Shown here piece by piece: positions 1,698 to 41,634 of a DNA stretch of 64,000 bases (positions are counted from its first letter, which is position 1; each line of letters begins with the position of its first letter). Source of the DNA: Escherichia coli (lineage in GTDB: Bacteria > Pseudomonadota > Gammaproteobacteria > Enterobacterales > Enterobacteriaceae); NCBI RefSeq assembly GCF_024223415.1, contig NZ_CP100500.1; one strand, given 5' to 3'. Below the pieces are notes generated by a model. The model made no database searches. It was not told where the DNA came from and saw nothing but the letters and a program-made list of their open reading frames with translations. Made by a program: the position numbers and the translations under genes.

Positions 1698-1743
1698 AAG
1701 ACTGCTAAAATGGCTTTTTGCCTCATCAACACCTGAAGGCCTC

Positions 1744-2214: not shown

Positions 2215-2255
2215 AAAATTGGCGGTCATGTTTAGAGCATGACCGCCAACCGATT
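2213..2255. terminator. Bidirectional intrinsic terminator between convergent yehS and yehR
   Basis: Stem ggcggtcat/atgaccgcc (2221-2247) flanked by A-run upstream and T-rich downstream. Confidence 0.55.
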
Positions 2256-2715: not shown

Positions 2716-2839
2716 GTAAAACTCCATTTTATTTAATCAAGGAACTGGTGACTCTCACCAGGGGCTATATAGGATATGCCTAATACCGTGGCGTGAGCAG
2801 TCCGGAACTGGAGTAGAACTCTTAGTAAAAAGCACTATT

Positions 2840-8245: not shown

Positions 8246-8255
8246 GCATCTTTCC

Positions 8256-9344: not shown

Positions 9345-9454
9345 ATATTCATCCCTGAAATGTATTAATGAAATAAACGATATTTTACGCGCAATAAATG
9401 TTTGGCGCATTAGTTGTTTGAGCGAAAAATATCTGGAAAGCAGATCACAGTAAA

Positions 9455-9490
9455 TAAAAAAACCTGCTGGTGAGGCAGGTTCTTTTATTT
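9455..9490 (-). terminator. Intrinsic terminator downstream of yehK (minus strand)
   Basis: Hairpin aacctgctgg/ccagcaggtt with flanking A/T runs. Confidence 0.5.
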
Positions 9491-9650
9491 ACTATTTTCA
9501 GGCCTAACACCACAGCCTGTGCAACATCGTGTTCCAACGAACGAATTATAACCACGGCTGGACCCCGTTGCAATTAAGATAATGAGATTTATAATCCAGG
9601 CCATTGGGACGTTGCGCCGGATCGGACCAATTTGAATTATTTAGAGTATA

Positions 9651-9968
9651 TTATTCTATTTCTTGGTTGAATATATTCTGTAGTTCACGATTAAAAATTG
9701 CTATTACAGTTTCAGGTGATTCACCTCGTAATTTCCGCTCATCAATACACTCATCTCTTATATAAATCAACGCATCATTTATTAGCGGGTCAGCATCTTC
9801 TCGATCACGTTGATGAAATGTTGGACGTAGCCGGAATCGCTCCAGTCGATAGACGGAACCTGTAAATAATTCAGAGCATTTATGGATCTCAAGTCTGAAG
9901 GAAAACGGATCTTCAGGTACAGGGACCTCATAATCGTAAATAGCAACCAGCTCTTTTTGCACGATCAT
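9651..9968 (-). CDS. yehK: Small uncharacterised protein YehK
   Basis: 105-aa ORF in conserved position between yehL and yehI. Confidence 0.7.
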   Translation of the reverse strand: MIVQKELVAIYDYEVPVPEDPFSFRLEIHKCSELFTGSVYRLERFRLRPTFHQRDREDADPLINDALIYIRDECIDERKLRGESPETVIAIFNRELQNIFNQEIE

Positions 9969-10028
9969 CGCTTTCCCCGCTGGTAAGTCGTGTTGATAAC
10001 GGGCAGTTGCATCACTGCCCGCTGTGTT

Positions 10029-13661: not shown

Positions 13662-13670
13662 GCTCTTTCC

Positions 13671-28095: not shown

Positions 28096-28143
28096 GATTA
28101 ATAGTGCTATGATTTTTCATATTCTTGTTAACCAGGTGTTGCC

Positions 28144-28416
28144 ATGTCTCATACAATCCGTGATAAACAGAAACTGAAAGCGCGTGCCAGTAAGATTCAG
28201 GGCCAGGTCGTGGCGCTCAAGAAAATGCTCGACGAGCCGCACGAATGCGCTGCAGTTTTACAACAGATTGCTGCTATCCGTGGCGCGGTAAACGGTCTGA
28301 TGCGGGAAGTGATTAAAGGTCATCTGACGGAACACATCGTTCACCAGGGGGATGAGCTAAAACGTGAAGAAGATCTGGATGTCGTTCTGAAGGTGCTGGA
28401 TTCATATATCAAATAA
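28144..28416 (+). CDS. rcnR: Ni/Co-responsive transcriptional repressor RcnR
   Basis: 90-aa CsoR/RcnR-family protein. Confidence 0.9.
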
Positions 28417-28504
28417 TTTATTAACGCGATTGTAAAACTGCCGTTTTTCCTCGTTTACAACGCGTGCGCTGGACATTACCATCCTCCTCTGCGATTTATC
28501 ATCG

Positions 28505-28557
28505 CAACCAAACGACTCGGGGTGCCCTTCTGCGTGAAGGCTGAGAAATACCCGTAT
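28505..28557 (+). ncRNA. 5' fragment of thiM TPP riboswitch aptamer, severed from thiMD by the island insertion
   Basis: Sequence aaccaaacgactcggggtgcccttctgcgtgaaggctgagaaatacccgtat matches the 5' half of the thiM thi-box leader, then diverges into island DNA. Confidence 0.75.
28544..28557. repeat. attL core: 14-bp direct repeat AGAAATACCCGTAT
   Basis: Identical 14-mer found again at 39954-39967 at the other island boundary; both lie within riboswitch sequence. Confidence 0.75.
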
Positions 28558-28643
28558 TTTCTCATTTAGTGTTTTTTGTGGTTCGGGGTTGTTCGTGGTT
28601 GTTTGTGTATGTGTTTGATATATATTGAATTATTGTGTTTTCT

Positions 28644-28718
28644 TGTTTGTTGTTGTTCGTCGTTGTTCGTAGAGCTTCAACAAAATGTGTGGTCAGTTGT
28701 GTGGTCAGTTTTTTGAGG
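28644..28718. repeat. Left copy of ~75-bp near-identical direct repeat just inside the island end
   Basis: ttgttcgtcgttgttcgtagagcttcaacaaaatgtgtggtcagttgtgtggtcagtttt shared with 39821-39895; contains internal TTGTTCGT and TGTGGTCAGTT sub-repeats. Confidence 0.85.
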
Positions 28719-28745
28719 CTGGAGGACTGAAAAGAGGATCTGATA

Positions 28746-29969
28746 GTGGGAAAAGCACTAAACAAACTGAGCGATTCGACGTTAAAAAAATTGGCGTCTG
28801 TCCAAGCAGAAAAAGAGCGTTTTTACTCCGACGGGGGCGGGCTGGAGATTAAACACTCAAAGGGCGGCAAATTAACCTGGTATTTCCGGTACCGAACGGG
28901 AGGCCGTGAGGTTGCCGCAGAGCGGTTAAAGCTGGGGGCTTACCCTGAATTGTCGCTGAAAGCTGCAAGGGAAAAACGCGCACAGTGCCGGGCATGGCTG
29001 GCTGAGGGTAAAAACCCCCGTTATGAGTTGTGCGCCACAGTACAGGAAGCGCTAAAACCCGTTACGGTGAAGGAGGCGATTAACTACTGGCTGGATGAAT
29101 ATGCGAAGGATAACCGCAAAGACTACATAAAGCTGGTGCAACGTATGGATAAGCACATCATTTGCCATATAGGGGCAATTCCCCTTGATAAGTGTGATAC
29201 AAGGCAGTGGATCGCATGTTTTGACCGTGTACGAAAAAAAGCACCAGTAGCAGCAGGGCACGTCATGCAAACCTGCAAACAGGCGCTAAAGTTCTGCCGC
29301 AGGAGACGCTACGCGTTCAGTAATGCCCTGGACGATTTGATCGTCAGCGATGTGGGTAAGAGAGCAGAAATTCGCGAGAGGGTGCACAGCAACAGCGAAT
29401 TAAAGGAAATTTTACGCGCTATTGATGGTGATGTGTTCGCGCCTTACTACAGCGCGTTAATGCGCTTGCTGATTGTGTTCGGGTGCAGAACGGCAGAGGT
29501 CAGACTTTCAGAGATCAAAGAATGGGATCTGAAAGAAATGTTGTGGACAGTGCCAAAAGAGCATAGCAAAACGAAGGTAACGATATTCAGGCCAATCCCC
29601 GATGGCATTTTGCCGTTCATTCAGAAGCTGGTGGAGCAGAACCGGCATACAGGGTTATTACTCGGAGAACTGAAAAAAGATACCACGGTAGCGCAATATG
29701 GGCGAAATGCGCATAAGCGGCTTAACCAGGAACACTGGACGCTGCATGACTTTCGCCACACGTTTACAACGATGCTGAACGATTTAGGTGTCGATCCGCA
29801 TATCGTGGAGCACATCACAGCGCATCAGATGCCCGGTCAGCAAAAAACCTATAACCATTCACGCTATTTACAGGCGAAGCGAGACGCTCTGAATCTGTGG
29901 GTTGAGCGCCTCGATGTGCTGGCTGGAAATCATGAAAATATTGTCATATTAAGGGCTGAAAATGAATAA
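28746..29969 (+). CDS. int: Tyrosine recombinase, P4-type integrase
   Basis: N-terminal arm-binding-like segment (SDGGGLEIKHSKGGKLTWYFRYR) and C-terminal catalytic region (HDFRHTFTT...); apparent GTG start. Confidence 0.9.
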   Translation: MGKALNKLSDSTLKKLASVQAEKERFYSDGGGLEIKHSKGGKLTWYFRYRTGGREVAAERLKLGAYPELSLKAAREKRAQCRAWLAEGKNPRYELCATVQEALKPVTVKEAINYWLDEYAKDNRKDYIKLVQRMDKHIICHIGAIPLDKCDTRQWIACFDRVRKKAPVAAGHVMQTCKQALKFCRRRRYAFSNALDDLIVSDVGKRAEIRERVHSNSELKEILRAIDGDVFAPYYSALMRLLIVFGCRTAEVRLSEIKEWDLKEMLWTVPKEHSKTKVTIFRPIPDGILPFIQKLVEQNRHTGLLLGELKKDTTVAQYGRNAHKRLNQEHWTLHDFRHTFTTMLNDLGVDPHIVEHITAHQMPGQQKTYNHSRYLQAKRDALNLWVERLDVLAGNHENIVILRAENE

Positions 29970-30747
29970 TCTGGGCCGTGTATATCATACGCTGCCAATG
30001 GCAGCTAAAAAAATGGGATGTACTGTAGAGGATATTCTACATTTTGGTGCAACTAACCGACTTGAAATATGTGCGTATATTGATGATATTGAACAGAGAA
30101 AAGATTATTGCACTTTTAATGTGTTTTTTGATAATGAAGATAGCGAGAATAGTTTTTCTAAAACTATAAATAAATATAATTCCATATTTACTGACATGTA
30201 TGAAATATCATTGTTTAATTATAATGATGAGTTTTGTGTTGATGATGAGCGTATGGTTATTGAAGGTTTGTATGCTAATCATATGAAAGGCTTTTTTGCA
30301 ATACCATCTGAATTTCTTGTCGAAGTTGAATTGTCAAGTGCCTGTGAAATCATAAATCTATCGCCTCGTTATTTATATACACCGAAAGGTTATGGTGATT
30401 ATATTCGGTTGGATAGTATAGAAGGTCTTTCTATTCCAGAAAACAGGCTCGTGATATTCGATAGTGAGATATCGGGTTTTAATTATCAAAAGAAACCTAA
30501 ATATGCCGGAGGTGAAAGAGAATCACCTAAAACCAGAGCTAAAAAAGCCGAGATAATACCTGCTCTCATAAAACTGATCCCTGAGATGCAAGATGTGGAT
30601 TTGGAGGATACACCCGTATCCAAAATTGCAGAAATGATAGAGGTTATTGCTGCACAAAGAGGGGTTGAGTTACCTAGCACTCACAGGCAGACATGGCAGA
30701 AATATTTAGGGCGTGATGCTGGTGACGTTCCAAAACGTCAAAAGTGA
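29962..30747 (+). CDS. Hypothetical cargo protein, AT-rich, translationally coupled to int
   Basis: 261-aa ORF overlapping int stop by 8 bp; noticeably lower GC than flanks; no motif recognised. Confidence 0.6.
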   Translation: MNNLGRVYHTLPMAAKKMGCTVEDILHFGATNRLEICAYIDDIEQRKDYCTFNVFFDNEDSENSFSKTINKYNSIFTDMYEISLFNYNDEFCVDDERMVIEGLYANHMKGFFAIPSEFLVEVELSSACEIINLSPRYLYTPKGYGDYIRLDSIEGLSIPENRLVIFDSEISGFNYQKKPKYAGGERESPKTRAKKAEIIPALIKLIPEMQDVDLEDTPVSKIAEMIEVIAAQRGVELPSTHRQTWQKYLGRDAGDVPKRQK

Positions 30748-30803
30748 TATCACGTACAGATAGTGTGATATCACACAAACGGCATTTTACCACCGCCTAG
30801 AAT

Positions 30804-30837
30804 CGTCCTCGTTCGGCAACGTTCGAGGACGTTTTTT
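30804..30837 (+). terminator. Hairpin plus T-run immediately upstream of alpA start
   Basis: cgtcctcg...cgaggacg followed by TTTTTT then ATG; the 3' arm contains the GAGGA Shine-Dalgarno-like sequence. Confidence 0.5.
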
Positions 30838-31062
30838 ATGAATCAAAATACACAATTTCAATCACTATCAGATCGCGTAATCCGTGAGGATGAATGCCGT
30901 AAGTTAACAGGAGTGTGCCGCACTACACGCTACGAACTGGAGAAAAAAGGGAGCTTTCCGTCTCGCCGTAATCTTGGTGGGCGTTCTGTAGGTTGGCTGC
31001 TGTCCGAGGTTATGGAATGGGTTAAAAGCCGGGATCGCATTAATTCAGGCAAGGCAGCGTAA
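30838..31062 (+). CDS. alpA: AlpA-family phage transcriptional regulator
   Basis: 74-aa small HTH protein with typical AlpA-like pattern (SDRVIREDECRKLTGVCRTTRYELEKKGSFP). Confidence 0.8.
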   Translation: MNQNTQFQSLSDRVIREDECRKLTGVCRTTRYELEKKGSFPSRRNLGGRSVGWLLSEVMEWVKSRDRINSGKAA

Positions 31063-31200
31063 AGGGGAGTATATGACACATAAAACAAAGGCGACCGGGG
31101 GCGGTCGCCAATGGGAAAACACTAAACATAAGCCCGGCCATCATAGCGATTTGCTGGCTGGTGGGCAATGTGTCCAGTGTGGTGGCTTGCTGGTGGATTG

Positions 31201-31428
31201 TCAGCCAGGCGGTCGGTTTTTGCCGGATTTAAGCCGCCGTGGGTATTTATCGACAAAATCTTCAAGGGCAAATTTTTCTGGTGGCACTAAGCGCGGCGCT
31301 GGTGGTGGTATTTTTGTTCTGGTTAGTTCTTCCTCAAGTCTGGCGCAGGCTTCTGACTGCCTTTGCCGGATGATTTCATCATCTTGCGTTTGCGTGTCTT
31401 GTATTGGTGATAGTGTGTTGTTGGTCAT
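31201..31428 (-). CDS. Hypothetical protein, second gene of leftward operon
   Basis: 75-aa ORF downstream of the RHH-like gene on the minus strand, followed by a hairpin at 31094-31112. Confidence 0.45.
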   Translation of the reverse strand: MTNNTLSPIQDTQTQDDEIIRQRQSEACARLEEELTRTKIPPPAPRLVPPEKFALEDFVDKYPRRLKSGKNRPPG

Positions 31429-31485
31429 GATACTGCCCTGTAAAGCAATGCGCCGTAGTACCTCACACCACGGCGCTGATAGTGA

Positions 31486-31683
31486 TTATTCTGATTCTTT
31501 GGCCTTGCGGCGCTGTTCATATTTTAATTTGCGTCCACAGGCATCTAAGACCCATGCGGAAAAATTAGCACTAGGATTAGTTAATTTTTCTTGTTCAACG
31601 CTGGCATCAATCCCATCTATAAGCTCATGTGGGAATCGAATATTTTTCTTTGCTGATTTGTTGTTTGTGTTACCACTAGACAT
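31486..31683 (-). CDS. Putative ribbon-helix-helix DNA-binding protein, candidate island repressor
   Basis: 65-aa ORF; N-terminal KKNIRFPHELIDGID resembles the beta-strand/helix of CopG/Arc-type RHH proteins; divergent from rightward operon. Confidence 0.45.
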   Translation of the reverse strand: MSSGNTNNKSAKKNIRFPHELIDGIDASVEQEKLTNPSANFSAWVLDACGRKLKYEQRRKAKESE

Positions 31684-31710
31684 TGATGCACCTCACTTAA
31701 ATGGACTTTA

Positions 31711-31790
31711 TGGGCGCACACAATACAGCAAAAAAAGTGAGAAGTTAAGTATTGACATGTGCGCACACATGATTCTAATCTGTGCGCACA
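31711..31790. promoter_or_regulatory. Divergent promoter/operator region with three copies of palindrome TGTGCGCACA
   Basis: tgggcgcaca (31711-31720), tgtgcgcaca (31758-31767), tgtgcgcaca (31781-31790); TTGACA at 31752-31757 immediately precedes the second site. Confidence 0.55.
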
Positions 31791-31882
31791 GTTTGGGTTG
31801 CATTGCTCAAATTAAGCAACGCCCCGCAGTGCTCGCAACACATGCAGGGCGTCTAACCAAACCGTTAATAGGAGTAACGATT

Positions 31883-32083
31883 ATGGCTGGAACACAGCAT
31901 ACCCCACGCCTTGCGCACACACAAACCGCCTTTGTGTGGCGTTTTCTGGCACTGAGTGCCGGAGAATCTCAAATTATCCACGTAACCGCCTGGACGGAAC
32001 GCGAAGCGCGTAACCGTTGCCCGTCCGGTTGTGTCGCTGTATTCGCCGCCCGTATCCGTCAGGGGGAAACCTATGCACAATAA
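31883..32083 (+). CDS. Small protein, possibly Icd-like (host cell division inhibitor family)
   Basis: 67-aa ORF with good RBS (aggag), first gene of rightward operon; family assignment from memory of similar small P4-like proteins, weak. Confidence 0.4.
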   Translation: MAGTQHTPRLAHTQTAFVWRFLALSAGESQIIHVTAWTEREARNRCPSGCVAVFAARIRQGETYAQ

Positions 32084-32303
32084 AACAACACCGGACGCAG
32101 CAGAAGAAGCAATGCAAATACTGATACGTGCGCTCGTTGATGTTACCCACATGGTGGAGATTATGGAGAGAAAATCACAGTCGGAGCACGACAAAAGAAA
32201 ACTTAAAACAATAAAAATAATTGCCAAAAACTCGCTGATAAAAGTTACAGACATCCTTAATGAGGACATTAAAAGAATCAGGGAGAAAGTGTGTGATGCA
32301 TAA
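32073..32303 (+). CDS. Hypothetical protein
   Basis: 76-aa ORF, start overlaps upstream stop, RBS ggggga. Confidence 0.45.
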   Translation: MHNKTTPDAAEEAMQILIRALVDVTHMVEIMERKSQSEHDKRKLKTIKIIAKNSLIKVTDILNEDIKRIREKVCDA

Positions 32304-32523
32304 AATACCTTTTGATGTTCTTATTCATTCTGAAAACGCATTAATCCGTGCAAAGGAAATGGACGCATTACTACTTAAGTTAATTGATGTGCCGGAAAGT
32401 GGCGATGAATCTGATTCAATAATGTTTTCTGCCGTGCGTACGCTATTAACGCATGTTATTAATGAATTAAATACAGTGATGGCAATTCACGAGAATAATA
32501 AAGCGCAGCACACCGGAGAATAA
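32296..32523 (+). CDS. Hypothetical protein
   Basis: 75-aa ORF, start overlaps upstream stop, RBS gggaga. Confidence 0.45.
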   Translation: MHKIPFDVLIHSENALIRAKEMDALLLKLIDVPESGDESDSIMFSAVRTLLTHVINELNTVMAIHENNKAQHTGE

Positions 32524-32528
32524 AAACC

Positions 32529-32828
32529 ATGAAAAATAAAAATTCTGGCGTTAATGCCAGCGGCCCCGCTCGGCCTGAATTTATGAACGGCGATATTTAC
32601 CGCGACCAGTACGGCGGCACGGTAACGATTAAAGGCGTGGAGGAACGGCGCATCACTTACCGCCGTGAAGGCTACGAATATGATTGCGTGATGCCTGTTT
32701 ATCAGTTCCGGCGTGATTTTTCTCTGGTACAGGCAGCGCCCCGCAGTAAACCAACCAGCAGGGAGAAAGCACGCGCCAATATTCAGGAAATAAAAAAGAT
32801 GCTTAACGTATTCAGGGGTAAAAAATGA
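32529..32828 (+). CDS. Hypothetical protein
   Basis: 99-aa ORF, ATGA-coupled to the primase gene. Confidence 0.45.
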   Translation: MKNKNSGVNASGPARPEFMNGDIYRDQYGGTVTIKGVEERRITYRREGYEYDCVMPVYQFRRDFSLVQAAPRSKPTSREKARANIQEIKKMLNVFRGKK

Positions 32829-34573
32829 AACTGGCACCGAACGTAAAAAAACAGCCGCGTGGAATAAAACACAAAGACACAGAGGTGATTATCTTTGCGG
32901 GTAGTGATGCCTGGGCGCACGCGAAACAGTGGCAGGAACAGGACGGCCCCGCATCCGGCGATGATGTGCCGCCTGTGTGGCTCGGGCCAAATCAGCTTGC
33001 TGAACTGGATGCACTGAAAATTGTACCGGAGGGAAAAAAACGCGTAAGGCTGTACAGGGCCGGAGAACTGGATTTGGTGGAGACCAAAAAGATTGGTCAG
33101 AAGCTGGCGGCGGCAGATATTCAGGATGCGAATTTTTACTCTGAAGGAATGCACGGCCAGAAGGTGCAGAACTGGCGGCGCTATCTGAGTGCTGAGCGTG
33201 AAAATATTGCCGCAGGGCTTACCATGCCGGAACAGAAAAAAGCACAACTTTCACAGATGGCAGACAGTGAACGGGCACAGCTTCTTTCTTCCCGCTTTGA
33301 TGGTGTCTGCGTCCATGCAGAAAGTGAAATCGTTCACGTATGGCGCGGCGGGGTATGGTGTCCGGTCAGCACAATGGAACTTAGCCGCGAAATGGTGGCG
33401 ATCTATTCAGAGCACAGGGCCACTTTCAGCAAGCGCGTAATCAATAACGCCGTGGAAGCGTTAAAAGTTATTGCCGAACCAATGGGCGAGCCGTCCGGCG
33501 ATTTGCTGCCGTTCGCCAATGGTGCGCTTGACCTGAAAACGGGGGAATTTTCCCCGCACACGCCGGAGAACTGGATCACCACGCACAACGGCATTGAGTA
33601 CACGCCACCAGCACCAGGGGAGAATATCTGCGACAACGCGCCAAACTTTCATAAATGGCTTGAGCACGCAGCCGGAAAAGACCCGCGCAAGATGATGCGT
33701 ATATGTGCCGCGCTGTACATGATTATGGCGAACCGGTACGACTGGCAGATGTTTATTGAGGCCACCGGAGACGGCGGGAGCGGCAAAAGTACATTCACAC
33801 ACATAGCCAGCCTTCTGGCAGGGAAACAGAACACGGTAAGCGCTGAGATGACATCGCTTGATGATGCTGGTGGGCGTGCGCAGGTTGTCGGGAGTCGGCT
33901 TATTGTCCTGGCAGACCAGCCGAAATATACAGGCGAAGGAACGGGCATCAAGAAAATCACGGGCGGAGACCCCGTGGAAATAAACCCGAAATATGAGAAG
34001 CGTTTTACGGCGGTAATCAGGGCGGTGGTGCTGGCTACCAACAATAACCCGATGATATTCACCGAACGGGCCGGAGGTGTGTCACGTCGTCGCGTAATTT
34101 TCCGTTTCGACAATATCGTCAGTGAGGCTGAAAAAGACAGGGAGCTACCGGAAAAGATTGCGGCTGAAATCCCTGTCATTATCCGCCGCTTGCTGGCGAA
34201 CTTTGCCGACCCTGAAAAGGCACGGGCTTTACTCATTGAACAGCGAGACGGTGATGAAGCTCTGGCAATAAAGCAACAGACGGATCCGGTTATTGAGTTT
34301 TGCCAGTTTCTGAATTTTCTGGAGGAAGCGCGCGGCCTGATGATGGGCGGCGGCGGTGACTCTTCCAGGTACACGACCAGAAACAGCCTTTACCGCGTCT
34401 ATCTGGCGTTTATGGCGTATGCAGGCAGGAGCAAACCGCTAAACGTAAATGACTTTGGCAAGGCTATGAAGCCAGCGGCGAAAGTTTACGGACATGAATA
34501 TATAACGCGCAGGATTAAAGGGTTTACGCAAACCAACGTGACAACAACAGACGACTGCGACGCGTTTTTATAA
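32825..34573 (+). CDS. Phage/plasmid primase, P4 family (NTPase/helicase domain)
   Basis: 582-aa ORF with Walker A GDGGSGKST and D5/P4-alpha-like C-terminal NTPase architecture. Confidence 0.8.
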   Translation: MKLAPNVKKQPRGIKHKDTEVIIFAGSDAWAHAKQWQEQDGPASGDDVPPVWLGPNQLAELDALKIVPEGKKRVRLYRAGELDLVETKKIGQKLAAADIQDANFYSEGMHGQKVQNWRRYLSAERENIAAGLTMPEQKKAQLSQMADSERAQLLSSRFDGVCVHAESEIVHVWRGGVWCPVSTMELSREMVAIYSEHRATFSKRVINNAVEALKVIAEPMGEPSGDLLPFANGALDLKTGEFSPHTPENWITTHNGIEYTPPAPGENICDNAPNFHKWLEHAAGKDPRKMMRICAALYMIMANRYDWQMFIEATGDGGSGKSTFTHIASLLAGKQNTVSAEMTSLDDAGGRAQVVGSRLIVLADQPKYTGEGTGIKKITGGDPVEINPKYEKRFTAVIRAVVLATNNNPMIFTERAGGVSRRRVIFRFDNIVSEAEKDRELPEKIAAEIPVIIRRLLANFADPEKARALLIEQRDGDEALAIKQQTDPVIEFCQFLNFLEEARGLMMGGGGDSSRYTTRNSLYRVYLAFMAYAGRSKPLNVNDFGKAMKPAAKVYGHEYITRRIKGFTQTNVTTTDDCDAFL

Positions 34574-34597
34574 TTTTTTGTAATTGCTGTCTACCCT

Positions 34598-34815
34598 GTC
34601 TACCTGAGTAAAGAAAAATACATTTAATTCAGTGCATTAAGTTAGGTAGATAGCCTTTTTTTACTGTCTACCCACTATCTACCCTCTCTACCTGATTTTA
34701 CCAGAATCAGACAGGGAGGTAGACACGGGGTAGATAGTGGATAAAAGCACTCTACCCCGCTGAAAGCCGCGCCATTACTGGCATGAGGGCCACTAAGGTA
34801 GGTAAGGTAGACAAG
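34598..34815. repeat. Iteron cluster, putative island replication origin
   Basis: Many direct and inverted copies of GTCTACC/TCTACCC/GGTAGA motifs immediately downstream of the primase gene. Confidence 0.6.
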
Positions 34816-34861
34816 GGGAGGCACAACTCAAAACTTTTTAAACGAGGGGGTAAAAATAAAA

Positions 34862-35119
34862 ATGCACACATCAGAAAAATTTAACAATCAGAAGAAATCA
34901 CATAACCGCGCCATTGACCTTACAGAGCACTGGCTGAGGGTGGCGATAAAAATCATCGACCGCAACGCGGGAGAAGGATACGCGAAAGCACATCCCGAAC
35001 TGATAAGCGCATTCATGACCACAGCGGCGGCAAACTTTGCCACGTTGACAGAACGGGAGATTGCCGAAGCGGAACAGGTGACAACCATCAATGTTAAAAC
35101 CGGAGAGCAGACAGCATGA
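34862..35119 (+). CDS. Hypothetical protein
   Basis: 85-aa ORF, ATGA-coupled to ssb. Confidence 0.45.
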   Translation: MHTSEKFNNQKKSHNRAIDLTEHWLRVAIKIIDRNAGEGYAKAHPELISAFMTTAAANFATLTEREIAEAEQVTTINVKTGEQTA

Positions 35120-35526
35120 CAGCACAGATAGCGGCTTACGGGCGGCTGGTGGACGACCCGCAGACAAAACAGACCAGCAAGGGAACACCGATGACGCTGG
35201 CACGTATGGCGGTATCGCTGCCATGCAGCCAGGCACAGGATGGACAGGCGACGTTATGGCTATCGGTCATCGCATTTGGTAAGCAGGCCGACTTCCTGGC
35301 TAAACATCAAAAAGGCGACGTTGCCAGCGTATCCGGCACGATGCAGGTCAGCCAGTGGACCGGACAGAACGGGGAAACGCGGCAGGGTTATCAGGTTATT
35401 GCAGACAGCGTAATCAGTGCCCGTGCGGCACGTCCTGGCGGGAACAGACGCAAAACCACAGGCACACAGGGTAATCAGCCACCAGCGGGAGGCGATGACC
35501 CTTACGGTGATGATATTCCGTTCTGA
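35116..35526 (+). CDS. ssb: Single-stranded DNA-binding protein
   Basis: OB-fold-like N-terminus, Gly/Pro-rich linker and acidic C-terminal tail ending DDIPF. Confidence 0.8.
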   Translation: MTAQIAAYGRLVDDPQTKQTSKGTPMTLARMAVSLPCSQAQDGQATLWLSVIAFGKQADFLAKHQKGDVASVSGTMQVSQWTGQNGETRQGYQVIADSVISARAARPGGNRRKTTGTQGNQPPAGGDDPYGDDIPF

Positions 35527-35536
35527 GGGGGTGACG

Positions 35537-35809
35537 ATGGTACATGACCGGATAGCGGAGGAACTGGAGGCGAAAGGATTTTACCGGAGGGCGGCCGCGC
35601 GATGGGGTGAAGTTATGAGGCTGGTGAGCACTGACAAGGAGCGCGAACAGGTGGCAATGCGACGGCTGGAATGTTCACAGAAGGCACAGAGGCCACCGGA
35701 GCCGCCGGATGATTTAGGCGCTCTGAAAAGGTCAGTTAATCGCACTGAAAAACAAATGGGGATAGCTGGTATTGGCAAAGCAATATGGCGCAACTACCCG
35801 CAGAAGTGA
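35537..35809 (+). CDS. Small putative transcriptional regulator, PerC-like
   Basis: 90-aa ORF; resemblance to PerC-family prophage regulators is from memory and weak. Confidence 0.4.
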   Translation: MVHDRIAEELEAKGFYRRAAARWGEVMRLVSTDKEREQVAMRRLECSQKAQRPPEPPDDLGALKRSVNRTEKQMGIAGIGKAIWRNYPQK

Positions 35810-35815
35810 GCACAC

Positions 35816-35839
35816 AGCCGGAGCAATCCGGCTTTTTTG
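35816..35839 (+). terminator. Intrinsic terminator
   Basis: agccggagcaatccggc followed by TTTTTT. Confidence 0.6.
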
Positions 35840-35843
35840 CACC

Positions 35844-35887
35844 CAAAAAAAGCCCGATAAGTACAGGAGGCATCTTATCGGGCTTTT
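35844..35887. terminator. Second hairpin, bidirectional-looking
   Basis: A-run, stem gcccgataag...cttatcgggc, T-run. Confidence 0.55.
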
Positions 35888-35966
35888 GCATATGAGGTTT
35901 TTTTTGGTGCACTGACACACATGATCGGGATAATCATTTCATAATTTGCAACGTAACTCAATATTG

Positions 35967-36015
35967 TTGCGCAAAATGCAATCATGATTATAATCAGGAC
36001 TGGATGAACATCCAG
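35967..36015 (+). promoter_or_regulatory. Sigma70-like promoter with downstream dyad operator ahead of the capsid operon
   Basis: TTGCGC (35967-35972), 16-bp spacer, TATAAT (35989-35994), then perfect dyad ctggatgaacatccag (36000-36015). Confidence 0.5.
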
Positions 36016-36050
36016 TTATGATTTTTTAAGTCAAAGAGGAATTTCTGACT

Positions 36051-36257
36051 ATGGCAGAAGAGAAAAAAGGCGGGGTGACGGTCTACATAAGCCCCGACAT
36101 CGTGGAGGCGCTCAAGGAACGCCACCAGCAGAATGTAAAAGCAGGCATTGCGGCAGGACTTGATCCGCTGGCGATGGTTGAGCCGTCAACAGGCTGGCAG
36201 GTGCGTACCTATTTACGTGCGGCGCTGGGTATCAATCAGGTTCACGGAGGTGAATAA
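36051..36257 (+). CDS. Hypothetical small protein, first gene of capsid operon
   Basis: 68-aa ORF with RBS, stop overlaps capsid gene start. Confidence 0.45.
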   Translation: MAEEKKGGVTVYISPDIVEALKERHQQNVKAGIAAGLDPLAMVEPSTGWQVRTYLRAALGINQVHGGE

Positions 36258-37312
36258 TGACAGGCAAAGCAACGGCACTTACAACTAACCAGCTTTTCGC
36301 GTACCTGAATCGCGGGGATATTTCGGAATTAAAATTCAGTCCGCTGTTTACCACGCTGTTTTTCCCGAACGTGGCGACCTTCAACACCCAAAACATCATG
36401 CTGGACACCCTGGACATTGAAGAGGTTACGATGTCAGCGTTCTGTTCGCCTATGGTGGGTAGTCAGGTCCAGCGCGATAAAGGGTACGAAACCAGCACAA
36501 TCAAACCTGGCTACATGAAGCCAAAGCACGAAATCGATCCAACAAAGACCATCATGCGCATGGCTGGAGAAGATCCGGCACAGCTTAACGACCCAACCTA
36601 TCGCCGTATGCGCCTGATTACTGGCAACATGCGCCGCCAGGTAAACGCCATTAAAGCGCGTGTTGAATGGCTGGCGGTGAATGCGGTAACGACCGGAAAA
36701 AACATCATTGAGGGCGAAGGCATAGAACGCTATGAAATCGACTGGAAAATACCGGAAAACTGCATCATACAGCAGGCCAGTGGTAAAAAATGGTCCCAGC
36801 AGGATAAAGACATGCACGACCCAATCTATGACATCGAGCTTTATGCTGATCAGGCAGGTTGCCCCGCCAACGTCATGATTATGGGCGGTGAGGTATGGCG
36901 CACATTACGCAGCTTTAAAAAATTCCGTGAACTGTACGATCTTTCCCGTGGATCAGAATCCGCCGCCGAGCTGGCCTGTAAAAACCTGGGCGAAGTGGTG
37001 AGCTTTAAAGGCTATCTTGGTGATCTGGCCCTTATCGTCTATTCCGGCAAATACACTGACAGCGACGGCACCGAAAAATATTTCCTTGAGCCTGATTTGC
37101 TGGTCCTGGGTAACACCAATAATAAAGGGCTGGTGGCATATGGTGCGATTATGGATCAGGAAGCGGTAAGAACGGGCGCAACGCAAAACATGTACTACCC
37201 GAAAAACTGGATTGAGGACGGCGATCCGGCGATTGAGTACGTGCAGACGCACAGCGCACCGCAGCCGGTACCGGCAGATATTCGCAAATTTGTTACCGTC
37301 AAAATTGCTTAA
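36257..37312 (+). CDS. Major capsid protein, lambda gpE-like
   Basis: Clear blocks of similarity to lambda gpE from memory: KFSPLFTTLFF, KPGYMKPKHEIDP, EDPAQLNDPTYRRMR, YSGKY, YPKNWIEDGDPA. Confidence 0.85.
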   Translation: MTGKATALTTNQLFAYLNRGDISELKFSPLFTTLFFPNVATFNTQNIMLDTLDIEEVTMSAFCSPMVGSQVQRDKGYETSTIKPGYMKPKHEIDPTKTIMRMAGEDPAQLNDPTYRRMRLITGNMRRQVNAIKARVEWLAVNAVTTGKNIIEGEGIERYEIDWKIPENCIIQQASGKKWSQQDKDMHDPIYDIELYADQAGCPANVMIMGGEVWRTLRSFKKFRELYDLSRGSESAAELACKNLGEVVSFKGYLGDLALIVYSGKYTDSDGTEKYFLEPDLLVLGNTNNKGLVAYGAIMDQEAVRTGATQNMYYPKNWIEDGDPAIEYVQTHSAPQPVPADIRKFVTVKIA

Positions 37313-37323
37313 CGGGGGATTCT

Positions 37324-37659
37324 ATGGACGCTCCATATATTGAGTTATTTGCAGGCAGCCAGCAGGTATCCACGACGCTGGTACATTTTGCCGCTGATGC
37401 TGGCGTTATTCAGGAATTTACCCCGCTGATGCTGGCAGACAATGGCGAGTTTAAGGCGTGGGATGGTCAGGAATCTGGCAAAGCTGTTTATCTGACTTCG
37501 CACCCCGTGGACACGTCAAAGCAGAAATCAGCACAGTGTTACAAAACGGGGATATTCAATATTGCCGCCGTTAACTGGCCTGACAGCGTCGACACCGATG
37601 CGAAAAAATGCGCCGCCTTTGCGGGTTCCGGCGTATCCGTTCAGCCGCTGGCCCGATAA
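37324..37659 (+). CDS. Head decoration protein, lambda gpD-like
   Basis: Similarity to lambda gpD blocks: TPLMLADNGEFKAWDG and YKTG.F....WPDSVDTDAKKCAAFAGSGVSV. Confidence 0.75.
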   Translation: MDAPYIELFAGSQQVSTTLVHFAADAGVIQEFTPLMLADNGEFKAWDGQESGKAVYLTSHPVDTSKQKSAQCYKTGIFNIAAVNWPDSVDTDAKKCAAFAGSGVSVQPLAR

Positions 37660-37671
37660 GCAGGGGGAACG

Positions 37672-38085
37672 ATGGCAACGAATGAAAGTATCATGACGCT
37701 ACCGCTGGCGAGTAAATTTAAAGCCGAAGCGCGGGCAATGGCTGACAGAGGTTTATCAACCTACGAGGCCATACACCGACTAAACAAACTGGAAGAACAG
37801 GACAAGCCGCGCGCTGATGCGATTATGGCGCTTCATGAATCTGACGACTACCAGCCGCTGTTACGTGCAATGGCTAACGTGCCTTGTATCGATGTTGGTA
37901 CGGCTAAAAGCATCCTTAGCATGACCATAGAGCAGGAACGCCCGAAGGTTGCACCAGAGCTTACTTCAGCCTTTGAAAACTTTATGGACATGCACAGCCC
38001 GAAAGCCGTATCAGCTGGCATGGCATACGATGGCAGAACCCCGTGCGATGACGGCGACATCGACCGCATACTGAAAACCATCTGA
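37672..38085 (+). CDS. Hypothetical head-module protein
   Basis: 137-aa ORF directly after the decoration gene; no motif recognised. Confidence 0.45.
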   Translation: MATNESIMTLPLASKFKAEARAMADRGLSTYEAIHRLNKLEEQDKPRADAIMALHESDDYQPLLRAMANVPCIDVGTAKSILSMTIEQERPKVAPELTSAFENFMDMHSPKAVSAGMAYDGRTPCDDGDIDRILKTI

Positions 38086-38090
38086 GACAA

Positions 38091-38116
38091 GGCCGGAGAA
38101 ATCCGGCTTTTTTTGC
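38091..38116 (+). terminator. Intrinsic terminator after capsid operon
   Basis: aggccggagaaatccggc followed by TTTTTTT; near-duplicate of the hairpin at 35816. Confidence 0.6.
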
Positions 38117-38200
38117 GGGTCCTTTCCGGCATGTGGACCCGTTACGGGGCGTCGACCTCGCACGTTTTCGCTATTTATGACGTTTTTCCGTGAAGGTGAC
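38115..38200 (+). other. Lambda-like cos site (cosQ-cosN-proximal cosB), copy 1, upstream of terS-like gene
   Basis: gggtcctttccgg...gttacg GGGCGTCGACCT cgcacgttttcgctatttatga closely resembles remembered lambda cos (gggtcctttccgg...gttacg GGGCGGCGACCT cgcgggttttcgctatttatgaaaa). Confidence 0.7.
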
Positions 38201-38247
38201 ACCACCACCACTTGATTAATATTTAACCATGTAGTTAAGGTAACATT

Positions 38248-38682
38248 ATGATTGATAAAGCTTGTTTTGTAAGTCAGCAGGAAATAGCTGAACATTTCAA
38301 TGTTAACAGAACCACTATTCGCGCATGGACCAAACAGGGGATGCCGTATCTTAATGCGGATCGCGGAAAGTCTGGCGGTTATCACATCGGGCATACATTG
38401 TTTTGGTATTCAGGTAAAAGCCATCTTCAGACCATCGGATATCACGTAGAAACCAGTGCGCTGGAAAAAATTATGTTTGCCAGGCTGCTTTCATCTGAGC
38501 GTGACGAGTACTCCAGTGAAGAAACAGAACATCGATTTGATGAAGGTTTGCAGATTTACGGCTATTCACCGGAAGATGTGAGCAAGGCACGAAATAAAAT
38601 GGCTGGCTTTCTGGCTGGGTGGCGTCATGCCGTAAGCGTTCGCCGTGCCAGCATGGAGCAATCAGCCGATACAGAACAGTAA
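38248..38682 (+). CDS. Terminase small subunit-like protein (Nu1-like winged-helix N-terminus)
   Basis: N-terminus QQEIAEHFNVNRTTIRAWTKQGMPYL parallels lambda Nu1 KKQLADIFGASIRTIQNWQEQGMPVL; C-terminal part is divergent. Confidence 0.7.
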   Translation: MIDKACFVSQQEIAEHFNVNRTTIRAWTKQGMPYLNADRGKSGGYHIGHTLFWYSGKSHLQTIGYHVETSALEKIMFARLLSSERDEYSSEETEHRFDEGLQIYGYSPEDVSKARNKMAGFLAGWRHAVSVRRASMEQSADTEQ

Positions 38683-38714
38683 AGCCGATAACTTGTTAAT
38701 CACGCGCAGCAATG

Positions 38715-38850
38715 CGTGTGATTTTTGCACACTTCCGGTTAACGGGTACGATGTCCGGTTTGTTTGTACATTTTTTGCACATGTCCGGTTCGCAGAAAGC
38801 ATGTTTTTATATTTTTCAGATAGTTAACTTGCAGAGAAACCGGACATGGA
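38715..38850. repeat. Direct and inverted repeats TTTTTGCACA..TCCGGTT / AACCGGACATGG downstream of terS-like gene
   Basis: tttttgcacacttccggtt (~38722), ttttttgcacatgtccggtt (~38771), aaccggacatgg (38838-38849). Confidence 0.6.
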
Positions 38851-38930
38851 TCCCGAAAAATTTTCATAAATAGTGAAAACGCGCGGGTTCGACGCCCCGT
38901 AACGGGCCATAATTCCAGAAGGACCCGACG
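38845..38930 (-). other. Lambda-like cos sequence, copy 2, inverted relative to copy 1
   Basis: Reverse complement reads cgggtccttctgg...gttacg GGGCGTCGAACC cgcgcgttttcactatttatgaaaatttttcggg; long imperfect inverted repeat of 38115-38200. Confidence 0.65.
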
Positions 38931-38960
38931 ACACCAGACTATCAGAGCGATGGGGGCACA

Positions 38961-39242
38961 ATGACAGAAGCCGAACTACTGGGATTAATCCGCCGCGTTA
39001 CCGGAATCAGCCAGCAGCATGACGAACAGGCCACGCAGCCGGACAGCGTGACCGCCGAAAATTATGTGCGTGTTGTTGCGGAGGTGATGCGCCGTGACGG
39101 TATTGAGCTTAACGGCGTGGATATGCGCGACATACGGATCCGCGTTCTGGAAATGCTGGCATACCGTCGCCGCGTGCAGACGTACAGGGAAAAAGCAAAA
39201 ATAACGTACCACTGGAAGAAGCCGGAACGACTGCGTACGTAA
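38961..39242 (+). CDS. Hypothetical protein
   Basis: 93-aa ORF downstream of cos copy 2. Confidence 0.4.
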   Translation: MTEAELLGLIRRVTGISQQHDEQATQPDSVTAENYVRVVAEVMRRDGIELNGVDMRDIRIRVLEMLAYRRRVQTYREKAKITYHWKKPERLRT

Positions 39243-39374
39243 TACGTACGGACATCGAGATAACGCAAAATTGCGCTGGCTACATCCCTCACATCTGAGG
39301 ACTGATAACAAGCTGCCTGAAAGACAGTCACAAACTACGAAATTTTCGCAGTTTAATTAATGGTCAGCTTAATC

Positions 39375-39665
39375 GCTAACCCGCTGATATTTTCGGAAAC
39401 ATCAATTTGAGGAAGTCGGCGCGGTAACTCGCTGAACTTAAAGCAAAGCGCAAAATTGCGCTGATTACTGGTTGGAATTGTTCCAGAGTGCAAATTTGCA
39501 CTCTGGCCTAACCCGTTGATTATTTCGAAAACCTGCAATGCAGGAAATCGGGGAAGTAAGCCTAAGCTATTGATTGTTTCGAAAACCACCATTGGGGGAT
39601 GTCGGGAAAGTAAGACTAACCCATTGATTCTTCCACAATCCTCAATGTGAGGAGGCCGGACATCG
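39375..39665. repeat. Four ~54-bp imperfect repeats (three in tandem), each with a variable central CAAT-containing near-palindrome
   Basis: Units at ~39375, 39506, 39560, 39614 share CTAACCC.TTGATT.TTTCGAAAAC and TCGGG.AAGTAAG flanks around a variable centre (e.g. cctgcaatgcagg, cctcaatgtgagg). Confidence 0.7.
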
Positions 39666-39820
39666 TGACAGAGCGTGACAACCAGGTAACTAATCTCGCT
39701 GGTGGGCGTGATGTCGATATGGTGATCCCCATAACGGGTTATCCGTGATCATCCACCAGCTTCATGGCAGATAGCCGGAAAATGATAACGGTTAAGCAAA
39801 ACTGCCAGCAAATTTCCCTT

Positions 39821-39895
39821 TTGTTTGTTATTGTTCGTCGTTGTTCGTAGAGCTTCAACAAAATGTGTGGTCAGTTGTGTGGTCAGTTTTGAGGT
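39821..39895. repeat. Right copy of ~75-bp near-identical direct repeat just inside the island end
   Basis: Same ~60-bp core as 28644-28718. Confidence 0.85.
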
Positions 39896-39953
39896 TTTTA
39901 ATTCTTATGTGCTGAAAAACTTATTAATTATCAACTGATAACAAAAATTAGTA

Positions 39954-39967
39954 AGAAATACCCGTAT
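39954..39967. repeat. attR core: 14-bp direct repeat AGAAATACCCGTAT
   Basis: Identical to 28544-28557; continues directly into riboswitch 3' sequence. Confidence 0.75.
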
Positions 39968-40048
39968 CACCTGATCTGGATAATGCCAGCGTAGGGAAGT
40001 CACGGACCACCAGGTCATTGCTTCTTCACGTTATGGCAGGAGCAAACT
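39954..40048 (+). ncRNA. 3' part of thiM TPP riboswitch (P4/P5 plus expression platform) retained upstream of thiM
   Basis: gaaatacccgtatcacctgatctggataatgccagcgtagggaagtcacggaccaccaggtcattgcttcttcacgttatggcaggagcaaact ATG matches the thiM leader 3' half. Confidence 0.75.
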
Positions 40049-40837
40049 ATGCAAGTCGACCTGCTGGGTTCAGCGCAATCTGCGCACGCGTTACACCTTT
40101 TTCACCAACATTCCCCTCTTGTGCACTGCATGACCAATGATGTGGTGCAAACCTTTACCGCCAATACCTTGCTGGCGCTCGGTGCATCGCCAGCGATGGT
40201 TATCGAAACCGAAGAGGCCAGTCAGTTTGCGGCTATCGCCAGTGCCTTGTTGATTAACGTTGGCACACTGACGCAGCCACGCGCTCAGGCGATGCGTGCT
40301 GCCGTTGAGCAAGCAAAAAGCTCTCAAACACCCTGGACGCTTGATCCAGTAGCGGTGGGTGCGCTCGATTATCGCCGCCATTTTTGTCATGAACTTTTAT
40401 CTTTTAAACCGGCAGCGATACGTGGTAATGCTTCGGAAATCATGGCATTAGCTGGCATTGCTAATGGCGGACGGGGAGTGGATACCACTGACGCCGCAGC
40501 TAACGCGATACCCGCTGCACAAACACTGGCACGGGAAACTGGCGCAATCGTCGTGGTCACTGGCGAGATGGATTATGTTACCGATGGACATCGTATCATT
40601 GGTATTCACGGTGGTGATCCGTTAATGACCAAAGTGGTAGGAACTGGCTGTGCATTATCGGCGGTTGTCGCTGCCTGCTGTGCGTTACCAGGCGATACGC
40701 TGGAAAATGTCGCATCTGCCTGTCACTGGATGAAACAAGCCGGAGAACGCGCAGTCGCCAGAAGCGAGGGGCCAGGCAGTTTTGTTCCACATTTCCTTGA
40801 TGCGCTCTGGCAATTGACGCAGGAGGTGCAGGCATGA
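40049..40837 (+). CDS. thiM: Hydroxyethylthiazole kinase
   Basis: 262-aa ORF, translation recognised as ThiM. Confidence 0.93.
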
Positions 40838-41634
40838 AACGAATTAACGCTCTGACGATTGCCGGTACTGATCCGAGTGGTGGTGCGGGGATTCAGGCCG
40901 ATCTTAAAACCTTCTCGGCACTTGGCGCTTATGGTTGCTCAGTTATTACTGCACTGGTGGCGCAAAATACCCGTGGCGTACAGTCGGTGTATCGCATTGA
41001 GCCTGATTTTGTCGCCGCCCAGCTCGATTCGGTGTTCAGCGATGTGCGAATCGATACCACTAAAATCGGTATGCTGGCGGAAACCGATATTGTTGAAGCG
41101 GTGGCAGAACGGTTGCAACGTTATCAGATCCAAAACGTGGTACTCGACACCGTTATGCTGGCAAAAAGCGGCGACCCGCTGCTTTCACCTTCGGCGGTTG
41201 CTACGCTGCGCAGTCGATTATTGCCACAGGTTTCATTAATAACGCCAAACTTGCCCGAAGCTGCCGCCTTGCTCGACGCGCCACACGCGCGCACCGAACA
41301 GGAAATGCTGGAACAAGGGCGATCGCTGTTGGCGATGGGCTGTGGCGCAGTGCTAATGAAAGGTGGTCATCTGGATGATGAGCAAAGCCCGGACTGGCTG
41401 TTTACCCGCGAGGGTGAACAACGGTTTACCGCACCGCGCATTATGACCAAAAACACCCACGGCACTGGTTGTACACTCTCTGCGGCGTTGGCTGCACTAC
41501 GCCCGCGCCATACAAACTGGGCTGACACCGTACAGGAGGCAAAAAGCTGGCTTTCATCGGCGTTAGCCCAGGCCGACACGCTGGAAGTTGGTCACGGTAT
41601 TGGTCCGGTTCACCACTTCCACGCCTGGTGGTGA
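40834..41634 (+). CDS. thiD: Hydroxymethylpyrimidine/phosphomethylpyrimidine kinase
   Basis: 266-aa ORF overlapping thiM stop; PfkB-like kinase motifs. Confidence 0.93.

Follow-up and report, generated by a model that had tools for sequence, protein, structure and literature searches.

A phage-inducible chromosomal island inserted within the thiM TPP riboswitch of Escherichia coli

How does a single riboswitch come to lie in two pieces, more than 11 kb apart, ahead of the gene to which it belongs? This question is raised by the leader of thiM in a stretch of Escherichia coli DNA (64,000 nucleotides of contig NZ_CP100500.1, assembly GCF_024223415.1; the window in what follows), where the thiamine pyrophosphate (TPP) riboswitch is interrupted by a block of phage-related genes. 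A preliminary description of this DNA had seen in the block a phage-satellite-like island that entered through a target-site crossover inside the aptamer, leaving the same 14-mer at both junctions. Sequence and Rfam both confirm that the leader is in two halves, the 5′ part ending at 28557 and the 3′ part restarting at 39954, and the 14-mer, AGAAATACCCGTAT, has exactly two copies in the window with up to one mismatch allowed (the attL and attR cores of Table 1); none of 100 shuffles of the window gave two matches. To the left of the first core lie rcnR, promoter-like hexamers and the first half of the thiM leader, and to the right of the second the remaining leader and the thiM ATG at 40049. 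The unique DNA between the repeats measures 11,396 bp, or 11,410 bp counting one core copy. Our reading, which we consider very probable, is that a phage-inducible chromosomal island (PICI) was inserted here by its own integrase, through conservative site-specific recombination between its attP and an attB within the thiM TPP aptamer.

The first line of evidence comes from the empty site. When the two flanks are joined in silico (28100-28557 plus 39968-40400), the resulting sequence of 891 nt has 100% identity with several E. coli chromosomes, and it is found uninterrupted, with at least 80% coverage, in 4,723 of 5,426 complete E. coli genomes; at the empty site the Prokaryotic Genome Annotation Pipeline (PGAP) annotates rcnR, the riboswitch and thiM. 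This counters the possibility, raised in the preliminary description, that no empty variant of the site exists. In the island-free genomes sampled, homology to the left junction ends exactly at 28557 (one O157:H7-type row aside) and homology to the right junction begins exactly at 39954, so that the breakpoints fall on the limits of the repeat with single-base precision. These observations bear on an account without any insertion, in which the 11 kb would be an ancestral segment or the remains of a prophage, lost elsewhere by deletion and bordered by the 14-mer through coincidence. The sole argument in its favour is that no excised form was directly observed, but the joined flanks make up a complete TPP riboswitch above the Rfam threshold in those 4,723 genomes, the boundaries match the repeat to the base, a single integrase and att module is found with three different cargoes, Salmonella uses the same site, and tail, lysis and large-terminase genes are lacking. 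We regard this account as extremely improbable.

What exactly was cut becomes clear on the Rfam alignment, where the 14-mer corresponds to the last bases of J3/2 CUGAGA, the P2 3′ strand (ACCC) and the J2/4 GUAU. The cut falls between the pyrimidine-sensor arm (P2/P3), which stays at attL, and the pyrophosphate-sensor arm with the expression platform, which stay at attR. What remains at attL is the promoter-like site with the P1 5′ strand and the entire P2/P3 arm, an aptamer portion severed from P4/P5 and the expression platform, while attR keeps P4/P5, the P1 3′ strand and the expression platform. An Rfam scan of the window gave a TPP match (RF00059) of 36.4 bits at the right junction, coming from the 3′ half only, and no TPP match at E<1 at the left junction; neither reaches the gathering score of 54.3 bits that marks a complete aptamer, whereas the intact aptamer scores 71.2 bits in E. 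coli and 69.3 bits in its Salmonella allele. The idea that the aptamer could be rebuilt from island sequence at one of the junctions was rejected, the 36.4-bit match at attR being the 3′ half alone. In PKF4, where a related element sits, PGAP calls no riboswitch but a hypothetical protein on the minus strand (13919-14188 in the numbering of the retrieved locus) that spans attR and the riboswitch 3′ half, which is probably an annotation artefact of the split aptamer.

The second line of evidence is the recombination module of the island. The integrase gene int does lie beside the left junction, as had been noticed, starting 188 bp inside it, and its product has the layout of an arm-binding tyrosine integrase, with an N-terminal Arm-DNA-bind_3 domain (PF13356, 6.4e-18), a C-terminal Phage_integrase domain (PF00589, 1.6e-16) and the HxxR motif in the form HDFRH. 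Its description as a P4-type integrase holds only broadly, for any tyrosine recombinase that has an Arm-DNA-bind_3 domain. The closest true phage integrases are those of phi80 and relatives at ~31% identity; two satellite-like or composite records labelled as phages reach 50-51%. The integrases of EcCI224, PKF4 and the O157 strain Al Ain are 96.8-98.8% identical to it. Both ends of the island carry GTTGTTCGT-like repeats in clusters, and a 70-nt repeat (28643-28712 and 39821-39890, 99% identical) supplies each arm with one tandem TGTGTGGTCAGT pair, which is absent from the rest of the window. Conserved arms are also found in PKF4, EcCI224 and Al Ain, and Salmonella elements show the same layout with the variant repeats TGTGAGGTCAGT and GTGCGGTCAGT. 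These repeats are candidate arm-type sites to which the integrase would bind. The right-hand 70-nt repeat was also considered as a duplicated int promoter driving thiMD, an idea that was dropped as the promoter scan gave it no support. Between the arms, the core of attP forms the imperfect inverted repeat AGAAATAC-CC-GTATTTTCT, and the predicted attP junction of the excised island is …TTAGTAAGAAATACCCGTATTTTCTCAT… / …AAAATTAGTAAGAAATACCCGTATTTTCTCATTTAG….

A finer view of the crossover was given by one Salmonella element for which both ends and an empty site are available, with attB GGCTGAGAAATACCCGTACCACCTG, attL GGCTGAGAAATACCCGTATTTTCT and attR GATGGGATAAACCCGTACCACCTG. The Salmonella attB and the attP deduced from these ends have only ACCCGTA in common, and therefore strand exchange there is confined to 7 bp and a target-site duplication is excluded. 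By extension, strand exchange in the window most likely took place within the same ACCCGTA, that is, the P2 3′ strand followed by G-U-A. This result also decides on a transposon-like insertion in which the 14 bp would be a target-site duplication. A perfect 14-bp direct repeat at both ends is what such an event would leave, but neither a transposase nor terminal inverted repeats are present, the cores of the Salmonella junctions differ from each other (AGAAATACCCGTAT versus GGATAAACCCGTAC) and have only ACCCGTA in common, which fits attP x attB recombination, and one fixed site is used in all 70-odd E. coli genomes and in the six Salmonella loci examined. We give a transposition event hardly any credence.

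As for the kind of element inserted, the island is, judged by its gene set and cos sites, a classical Gram-negative PICI of the lambda-cos type (EcCICFT073/Rpp-cos type), which sharpens the earlier satellite-like label and moves it away from P4. Its features follow those listed for PICIs by Fillol-Salom et al. (2018, ISME J). The size falls within ~8-15 kb and a short direct repeat marks a specific att site, which no temperate phage seems to use: within the one collection of phage records searched, no integrase was more than 52% identical to int and no attP match appeared. The integrase gene is followed by alpA, whose product takes part in PICI induction (PMC6092414), and transcription runs in one direction, all family-assigned genes being on the + strand except one small open reading frame (ORF). 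A primase-replicase gene is also present, with a candidate origin, recognised by its palindrome, directly 3′ of it, which is where the origins of PICIs sit relative to their initiator gene (PMC6092414). A PHROG search of the island ORFs found no tail, lysis, portal or large-terminase genes. PICIs lack a complete packaging set and bring genes for helper interference or packaging redirection; here only gpE-like and gpD-like head genes, phrog_1999 and rpp are present, the last flanked by two inverted lambda-like cos sites. The Rpp homologue aligns with RppC (PDB 6HLK) over residues 2-125 and has the 144-aa length of RppA; the mechanism of Rpp proteins has been described (PMC6739421). Moreover, EcCICFT073 DNA matches 59% of the island at 91.6% identity.

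Two other classes of satellite were weighed. A P4-like satellite dependent on a P2-type helper would agree with the Arm-DNA-bind_3 domain, also found in the P4 integrase, and with the primase, which matches TIGR01613, the phage/plasmid primase of the P4 family. However, PICIs are explicitly set apart from P4 (PMC6092414), the primase has 582 aa, the cos sites are of the lambda and not the P2 type, and Rpp and the gpE/gpD-like capsid genes belong to the stretch that is 91.6% identical to EcCICFT073 DNA; no PHROG family annotated as P4 capsid-size or antitermination function was matched, although no search was aimed by name at psu, sid or delta. Altogether, a P4-like nature is very unlikely. The island was also considered as a capsid-forming PICI (cf-PICI) and rejected as such, the PHROG search having found none of the genes that define that group, which has its own portal, prohead protease, TerS, TerL, HNH and head-tail connectors.

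Table 1. Features of the thiM locus and the inserted island (positions in the window).
Feature	Position	Strand	Evidence and remarks
Promoter-like site TTTACA-17-TACCAT	28454-28482	+	Consensus scan; one site versus ~0.9 expected by chance
thiM TPP aptamer, 5′ part	28508-28557	+	P1 5′, P2 5′, P3 hairpin, J3/2 CUGAGA, P2 3′, GUAU; mapped on the intact RF00059 alignment
attL core, AGAAATACCCGTAT	28544-28557	+	Pattern search and left-junction query; inferred overlap ACCCGTA 28550-28556
attP P′ arm	28558-28745	+	GTTGTTCGT-like repeats at 28588, 28598, 28652, 28662
P′ arm tandem TGTGTGGTCAGT x2	28686-28709	+	Within the arm, just upstream of int
int, tyrosine integrase, 407 aa	28746-29969	+	phrog_1 E=4.6e-67; Pfam Arm-DNA-bind_3 residues 8-94, Phage_integrase 216-374
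ORF between int and alpA, 261 aa	29962-30747	+	No PHROG or NCBIfam match; PGAP gene at the same place in related islands
alpA, AlpA-family excisionase/activator, 74 aa	30838-31062	+	phrog_2790 E=1e-17; PGAP AlpA in PKF4
Small ORF, 65 aa	31486-31683	-	phrog_949; equivalent small reverse-strand genes in PKF4
Three small ORFs upstream of primase	32031-32828	+	phrog_5146, phrog_2196, phrog_285
pri-rep, P4-family/DUF5906 primase-replicase, 582 aa	32825-34573	+	phrog_864 E=7.8e-168; TIGR01613 109 bits versus cut-off 108.7
Candidate replication origin	34655-34747	.	Palindromic, iteron-like inverted repeat directly 3′ of pri-rep
phrog_1231 ORF	34862-35119	+	PHROG
SSB	35116-35526	+	PHROG; PGAP name in related island
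PerC-like activator	35537-35809	+	PHROG; PGAP name in related island
phrog_3255 ORF	36051-36257	+	PHROG
Lambda gpE-like major head protein homologue	36257-37312	+	PHROG; counterpart among EcCICFT073 c1499/c1500
gpD-like head decoration homologue	37324-37659	+	PHROG; counterpart among EcCICFT073 c1499/c1500
phrog_1999 ORF	37672-38085	+	PHROG
cos1-like site	38124-38193	+	Contains GGGCGTCGACCT, one mismatch from lambda cosN; inverted repeat with 38851-38920
rpp, redirecting-phage-packaging protein (TerS mimic), 144 aa	38248-38682	+	PDB 6HLK RppC E=1.6e-33; N-terminus matches phrog_57 TerS
cos2-like site	38851-38920	-	Inverted relative to cos1
Last ORF, 93 aa	38961-39242	+	phrog_1561
Non-coding right end	39243-39820	.	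Three 54-nt repeats 39374-39427, 39506-39559, 39560-39613; short palindromes
attP P arm	39821-39953	+	70-nt repeat 39821-39890 with TGTGTGGTCAGT x2 (39864-39887), then A+T-rich spacer
attR core (14 bp)	39954-39967	+	Pattern search and right-junction query; inferred overlap ACCCGTA 39960-39966
Riboswitch 3′ part	39954-40048	+	P2 3′, P4/P5 pyrophosphate-sensor arm, P1 3′, expression platform; Shine-Dalgarno GGAG 40039-40042
thiM	40049-40837	+	Intact ORF
thiD	40834-41634	+	Intact ORF

The life cycle of such an island can be sketched by combining its own ends with what is described for its relatives. The attP, with its core between repeated arm sites, would recombine with the attB inside the aptamer through the arm-binding integrase of the island; by analogy with EcCICFT073, AlpA and a lambdoid cos helper phage would drive excision, replication would start from the origin beside the primase, and the DNA would be packaged at cos1 by the lambdoid cos helper under the direction of Rpp. 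Several points weigh against this account of an integrase-driven PICI. The presumed mobility of the copy in the window comes from population data only, and what is said of the helper phage, of induction and of packaging derives from homologues. The predicted attP junction, used as an exact pattern, had no match in IMG/VR viral contigs or JGI metagenome contigs, and the 511-nt reconstructed attP matched neither any phage record nor, contiguously, any complete E. coli genome, and therefore tandem copies or captured circles do not occur in those genomes. At most 78% of the island is found in any one complete genome, and it is thus a new mosaic of known modules. Finally, the 7-bp overlap comes from one Salmonella element, with both junctions in GCA_011626825.1 and one empty site in another assembly, and carrying it over to E. 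coli assumes one mechanism across the integrase clade.

How new is the attachment site? The preliminary description knew of no report of it, a claim that is not borne out: Table S1 of Fillol-Salom et al. (PMC6092414) lists EcCI224 with the core AGAAATACCCGTAT and the att gene 'frmR-thiM', where 'frmR' is a mis-name for rcnR, and the same work counts eight PICI attC sites in E. coli. The island is thus an ordinary member of a well-studied satellite family, at an att site published since 2018. In the main text of that paper the word riboswitch does not occur, and among open-access papers we found none reporting a riboswitch, or thiM, as an integration site, which is weak evidence. What is added here is the location of the core within the TPP aptamer, with a drop of the Rfam score from 71 to 36 bits, below the threshold, together with a carriage of ~1.3% in E. 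coli with three cargoes, the use of the site in Salmonella, the 7-bp ACCCGTA overlap and a second integrase family at the same place. A riboswitch aptamer is used in this case as an att site in the manner of tRNA genes, likely because the core is invariant across genera, with 13 of its 14 bases equal in the E. coli and Salmonella attB.

The distribution of the element was examined in the same 5,426 complete E. coli genomes, where the left-junction query was found at full length in 71 and the right-junction query in 74, so that ~1.3% of them carry an element with these ends. One integrase and att module travels there with three cargoes, namely Rpp-cos PICIs, PICIs with a protease-capsid fusion, and capsid-forming PICIs. 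The att sites of integrase relatives were also compared, as had been proposed: six Salmonella loci hold integrases 68-76% identical to int, with attL at the same 14-mer and in syntenic position, whereas the nearest E. coli paralogue clade (67% identical) lies at cspD, another published PICI site, and remoter relatives lie elsewhere. Neither integrase relatives nor the exact attL pattern were found in GTDB species-representative genomes, and therefore the element is a trait of strains and not of species. One of the Salmonella elements at the thiM riboswitch (GCA_011626825.1, positions 192-15980 of retrieved locus L022) is ~15.8 kb long and contains int, alpA, DUF4222 and primase, and in addition a further integrase of 326 aa, a pair of ProQ-domain proteins and a module of the hok/sok type (sok RF01794, 109 bits, 15383-15555 of the same locus); no capsid or Rpp genes were seen in it.

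A supposition that all of the ~700 genomes with a split rcnR-thiM match carry this island turned out to be wrong. The PICI module accounts for 71-74 of them, and in 167 of the 5,426 genomes the riboswitch adjoins a different integrase, exemplified by that of E. coli O2:H16 BA92 (NZ_CP176406.1, 15406-23960 of locus L019). There, an island of ~8.5 kb is also inserted in the thiM TPP aptamer, co-oriented and with the integrase beside attL, but this integrase (434 aa, tyrosine type) has no BLASTP similarity to the window int beyond the catalytic motif, and the island is flanked by a perfect 82-bp direct repeat that covers almost the whole aptamer. Both aptamer copies are above the Rfam threshold (71.2 and 61.3 bits), the left one lying 84 nt upstream of the integrase start. 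Its cargo consists mostly of hypothetical proteins, with a helix-turn-helix (HTH) regulator and a small serine recombinase, and we know of no published name for it. For annotators the difference is a practical one, as PGAP calls no riboswitch where the aptamer is split and two where a BA92-type island is inserted.

Sampled rows suggest that many of the remaining split-match genomes are O157-type remnants. In the O157-type F3398 (NZ_CP040311.1, 13840-16003 of locus L002) an insert of ~2 kb stands between rcnR and an intact riboswitch and encodes an outer membrane protein, a hypothetical protein and an HTH-like protein, with no integrase. It looks like the decayed right end of a BA92-type island, because the homology to thiM resumes precisely where the 82-bp repeat begins, and remnants of this kind probably explain many of the ~700 genomes; O157:H7 EDL933 and PA20 retain the 82-bp segment alone. 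In Al Ain (NZ_CP043539.1) a cf-PICI with genes for major capsid, HK97 protease, portal, HNH, TerS and TerL (core at 1659 of locus L021 and 15001 of L020) is nested within the right-end riboswitch copy of a BA92-type remnant.

Two integrase families therefore use the thiM aptamer as their target, one breaking it and the other leaving it whole. A wider reading would make the aptamer an integration hotspot of the tRNA kind, chosen convergently by two or more tyrosine integrases that are unrelated to each other and whose insertion would affect regulation in opposite ways. In that reading, the PICI crossover within ACCCGTA would destroy the aptamer, free thiMD from TPP and place int behind the thiM promoter, while the BA92-type island would keep the thiM riboswitch and, through its second aptamer upstream of the integrase, could have a thiamine-responsive integrase. 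Taken whole, we think this reading rather unlikely; within it, the hotspot and its two architectures are observed here, and the regulatory outcomes, like the lack of any previous description, are proposals.

What, then, happens to thiM and thiD? Both genes now lie 11.4 kb from the promoter-like site of Table 1, which is likely the native thiM promoter; the motif is weak taken alone, and its position would fit a leader of ~150 nt. In the integrated state, thiMD would have lost the link to its native promoter as well as its control by TPP, and the layout suggests that the thiM promoter on the attL side reads toward int. The PICI does not rebuild its target, and therefore ~1.3% of the complete E. 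coli genomes have a thiMD operon without TPP sensor and away from its promoter.

One consequence, to which we give close to an even chance, is that integration silences or strongly lowers thiMD by polarity, in which case de novo thiamine synthesis, for which thiD is needed, would hang on weak read-through, or the host would rely on imported thiamine. The displacement of the genes and the absence of any sigma-70-like promoter in 39200-40060 point in this direction, and so do two terminator-like hairpins within the island (35816-35833, 38701-38718) and the copy of a 27-nt hairpin-plus-T-run repeat at 38087-38113; a weak hint of a cost is that the integrase cluster counts 588 members versus thousands in the paralogue clusters (one sampled member, P0008, lies at cspD). 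On the other hand, thiM and thiD are intact in all carriers examined, a simple promoter scan misses weak or non-consensus promoters, and no + strand terminator separates the last island gene from thiM.

This last point also speaks for the opposite outcome, which we rate as only slightly less likely: thiMD would be constitutive, by read-through from the island or from a promoter in its right arm, the aptamer being unable to form and the ribosome-binding site staying open. Switching of thiM between anti-anti-Shine-Dalgarno and anti-Shine-Dalgarno pairings is well established, and here the anti-anti-Shine-Dalgarno element (GGGAAG) would be free to hold the anti-Shine-Dalgarno one. The attR side lacks the 5′ strands of both P1 and P2 as well as P3, and the predicted minimum-free-energy fold of a longer attR leader keeps the GGGAAG:CUUCUUC 'ON' helix, but a shorter leader is predicted to fold with the Shine-Dalgarno sequence paired, and promoter scans found no candidate. 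The effect on thiMD is where the evidence pulls in both directions: the folding of the attR leader is ambiguous on Shine-Dalgarno access and depends on the 5′ end assumed, and scans of the last 750 bp of the island gave neither a sigma-70-like promoter nor a + strand terminator, the promoter and terminator counts for the right end and the packaging region being at chance level. In any event, the sensorless thiMD carriers make up a natural experiment on thiamine regulation, for which the BA92-type integrase, preserving the same aptamer, offers a ready comparison.

Some other features of the island deserve mention. The phrog_285 ORF (32529-32828) occupies the position of the DUF4222 gene that PGAP places directly before the primase in related islands, and the 93-aa last ORF may be the PICI accessory gene rdgR listed in Table S1 (PMC6092414). 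The region 34655-34747 gives weak matches, on both strands, to animal microRNA models (mir-135, mir-4650), which arise as artefacts from a long hairpin, most likely the origin from which the PICI replicates. A 27-nt hairpin-plus-T-run (ACA..GCCGGAG.AATCCGGCTTTTTT) occurs twice, at 35812-35838 after the PerC-like gene and at 38087-38113 after phrog_1999, and the two copies look like duplicated intrinsic terminators dividing the island into transcription units. The non-coding right end has no Rfam match; its short perfect palindromes include AGCGCAAAATTGCGCT (twice) and CCAGAGTGCAAATTTGCACTCTGG, and ~1,100 E. coli genomes contain unannotated pieces of it.

Among known systems, the closest in location is EcCI224 (Ecol_224; CP018948.1:1961620-1972242), with the same core, site and orientation, near-identical arms and an integrase 96.8% identical. 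Its length is 10.6 kb versus 11.4 kb for the window island, and its cargo is a fusion of ClpP-like protease and major capsid plus DUF1441, in place of the gpE/gpD-like genes, Rpp and two cos sites found here. The closest in cargo is EcCICFT073, the prototype PICI with helpers lambda and phi80, which matches island positions ~3941-10678 and shares with it the primase, SSB, PerC, the capsid and decoration homologues, Rpp, two cos sites, unidirectional transcription and AlpA; its att, however, is a different one (GGACATATTT at ycfD-phoQ), and the int-alpA module of the window has no match in the CFT073 island. A third relative is the cf-PICI of Al Ain (EcCIEDL933 family), with the same riboswitch core and an integrase 98.5% identical, but with portal, prohead protease, HNH and TerL genes that the window island lacks; in this line, four of six attB sites of cf-PICIs were reported in the cf-PICI paper to be also used by classical PICIs. 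Finally, the elements that target tRNA and tmRNA genes, such as P4 at leuX, likewise combine a conserved structured-RNA target with an arm-binding tyrosine integrase. Those elements normally carry a replacement for the 3′ end of the gene that they enter, which is thereby kept intact, whereas the window island brings an identity of 7-14 bp and rebuilds the RNA at neither junction.

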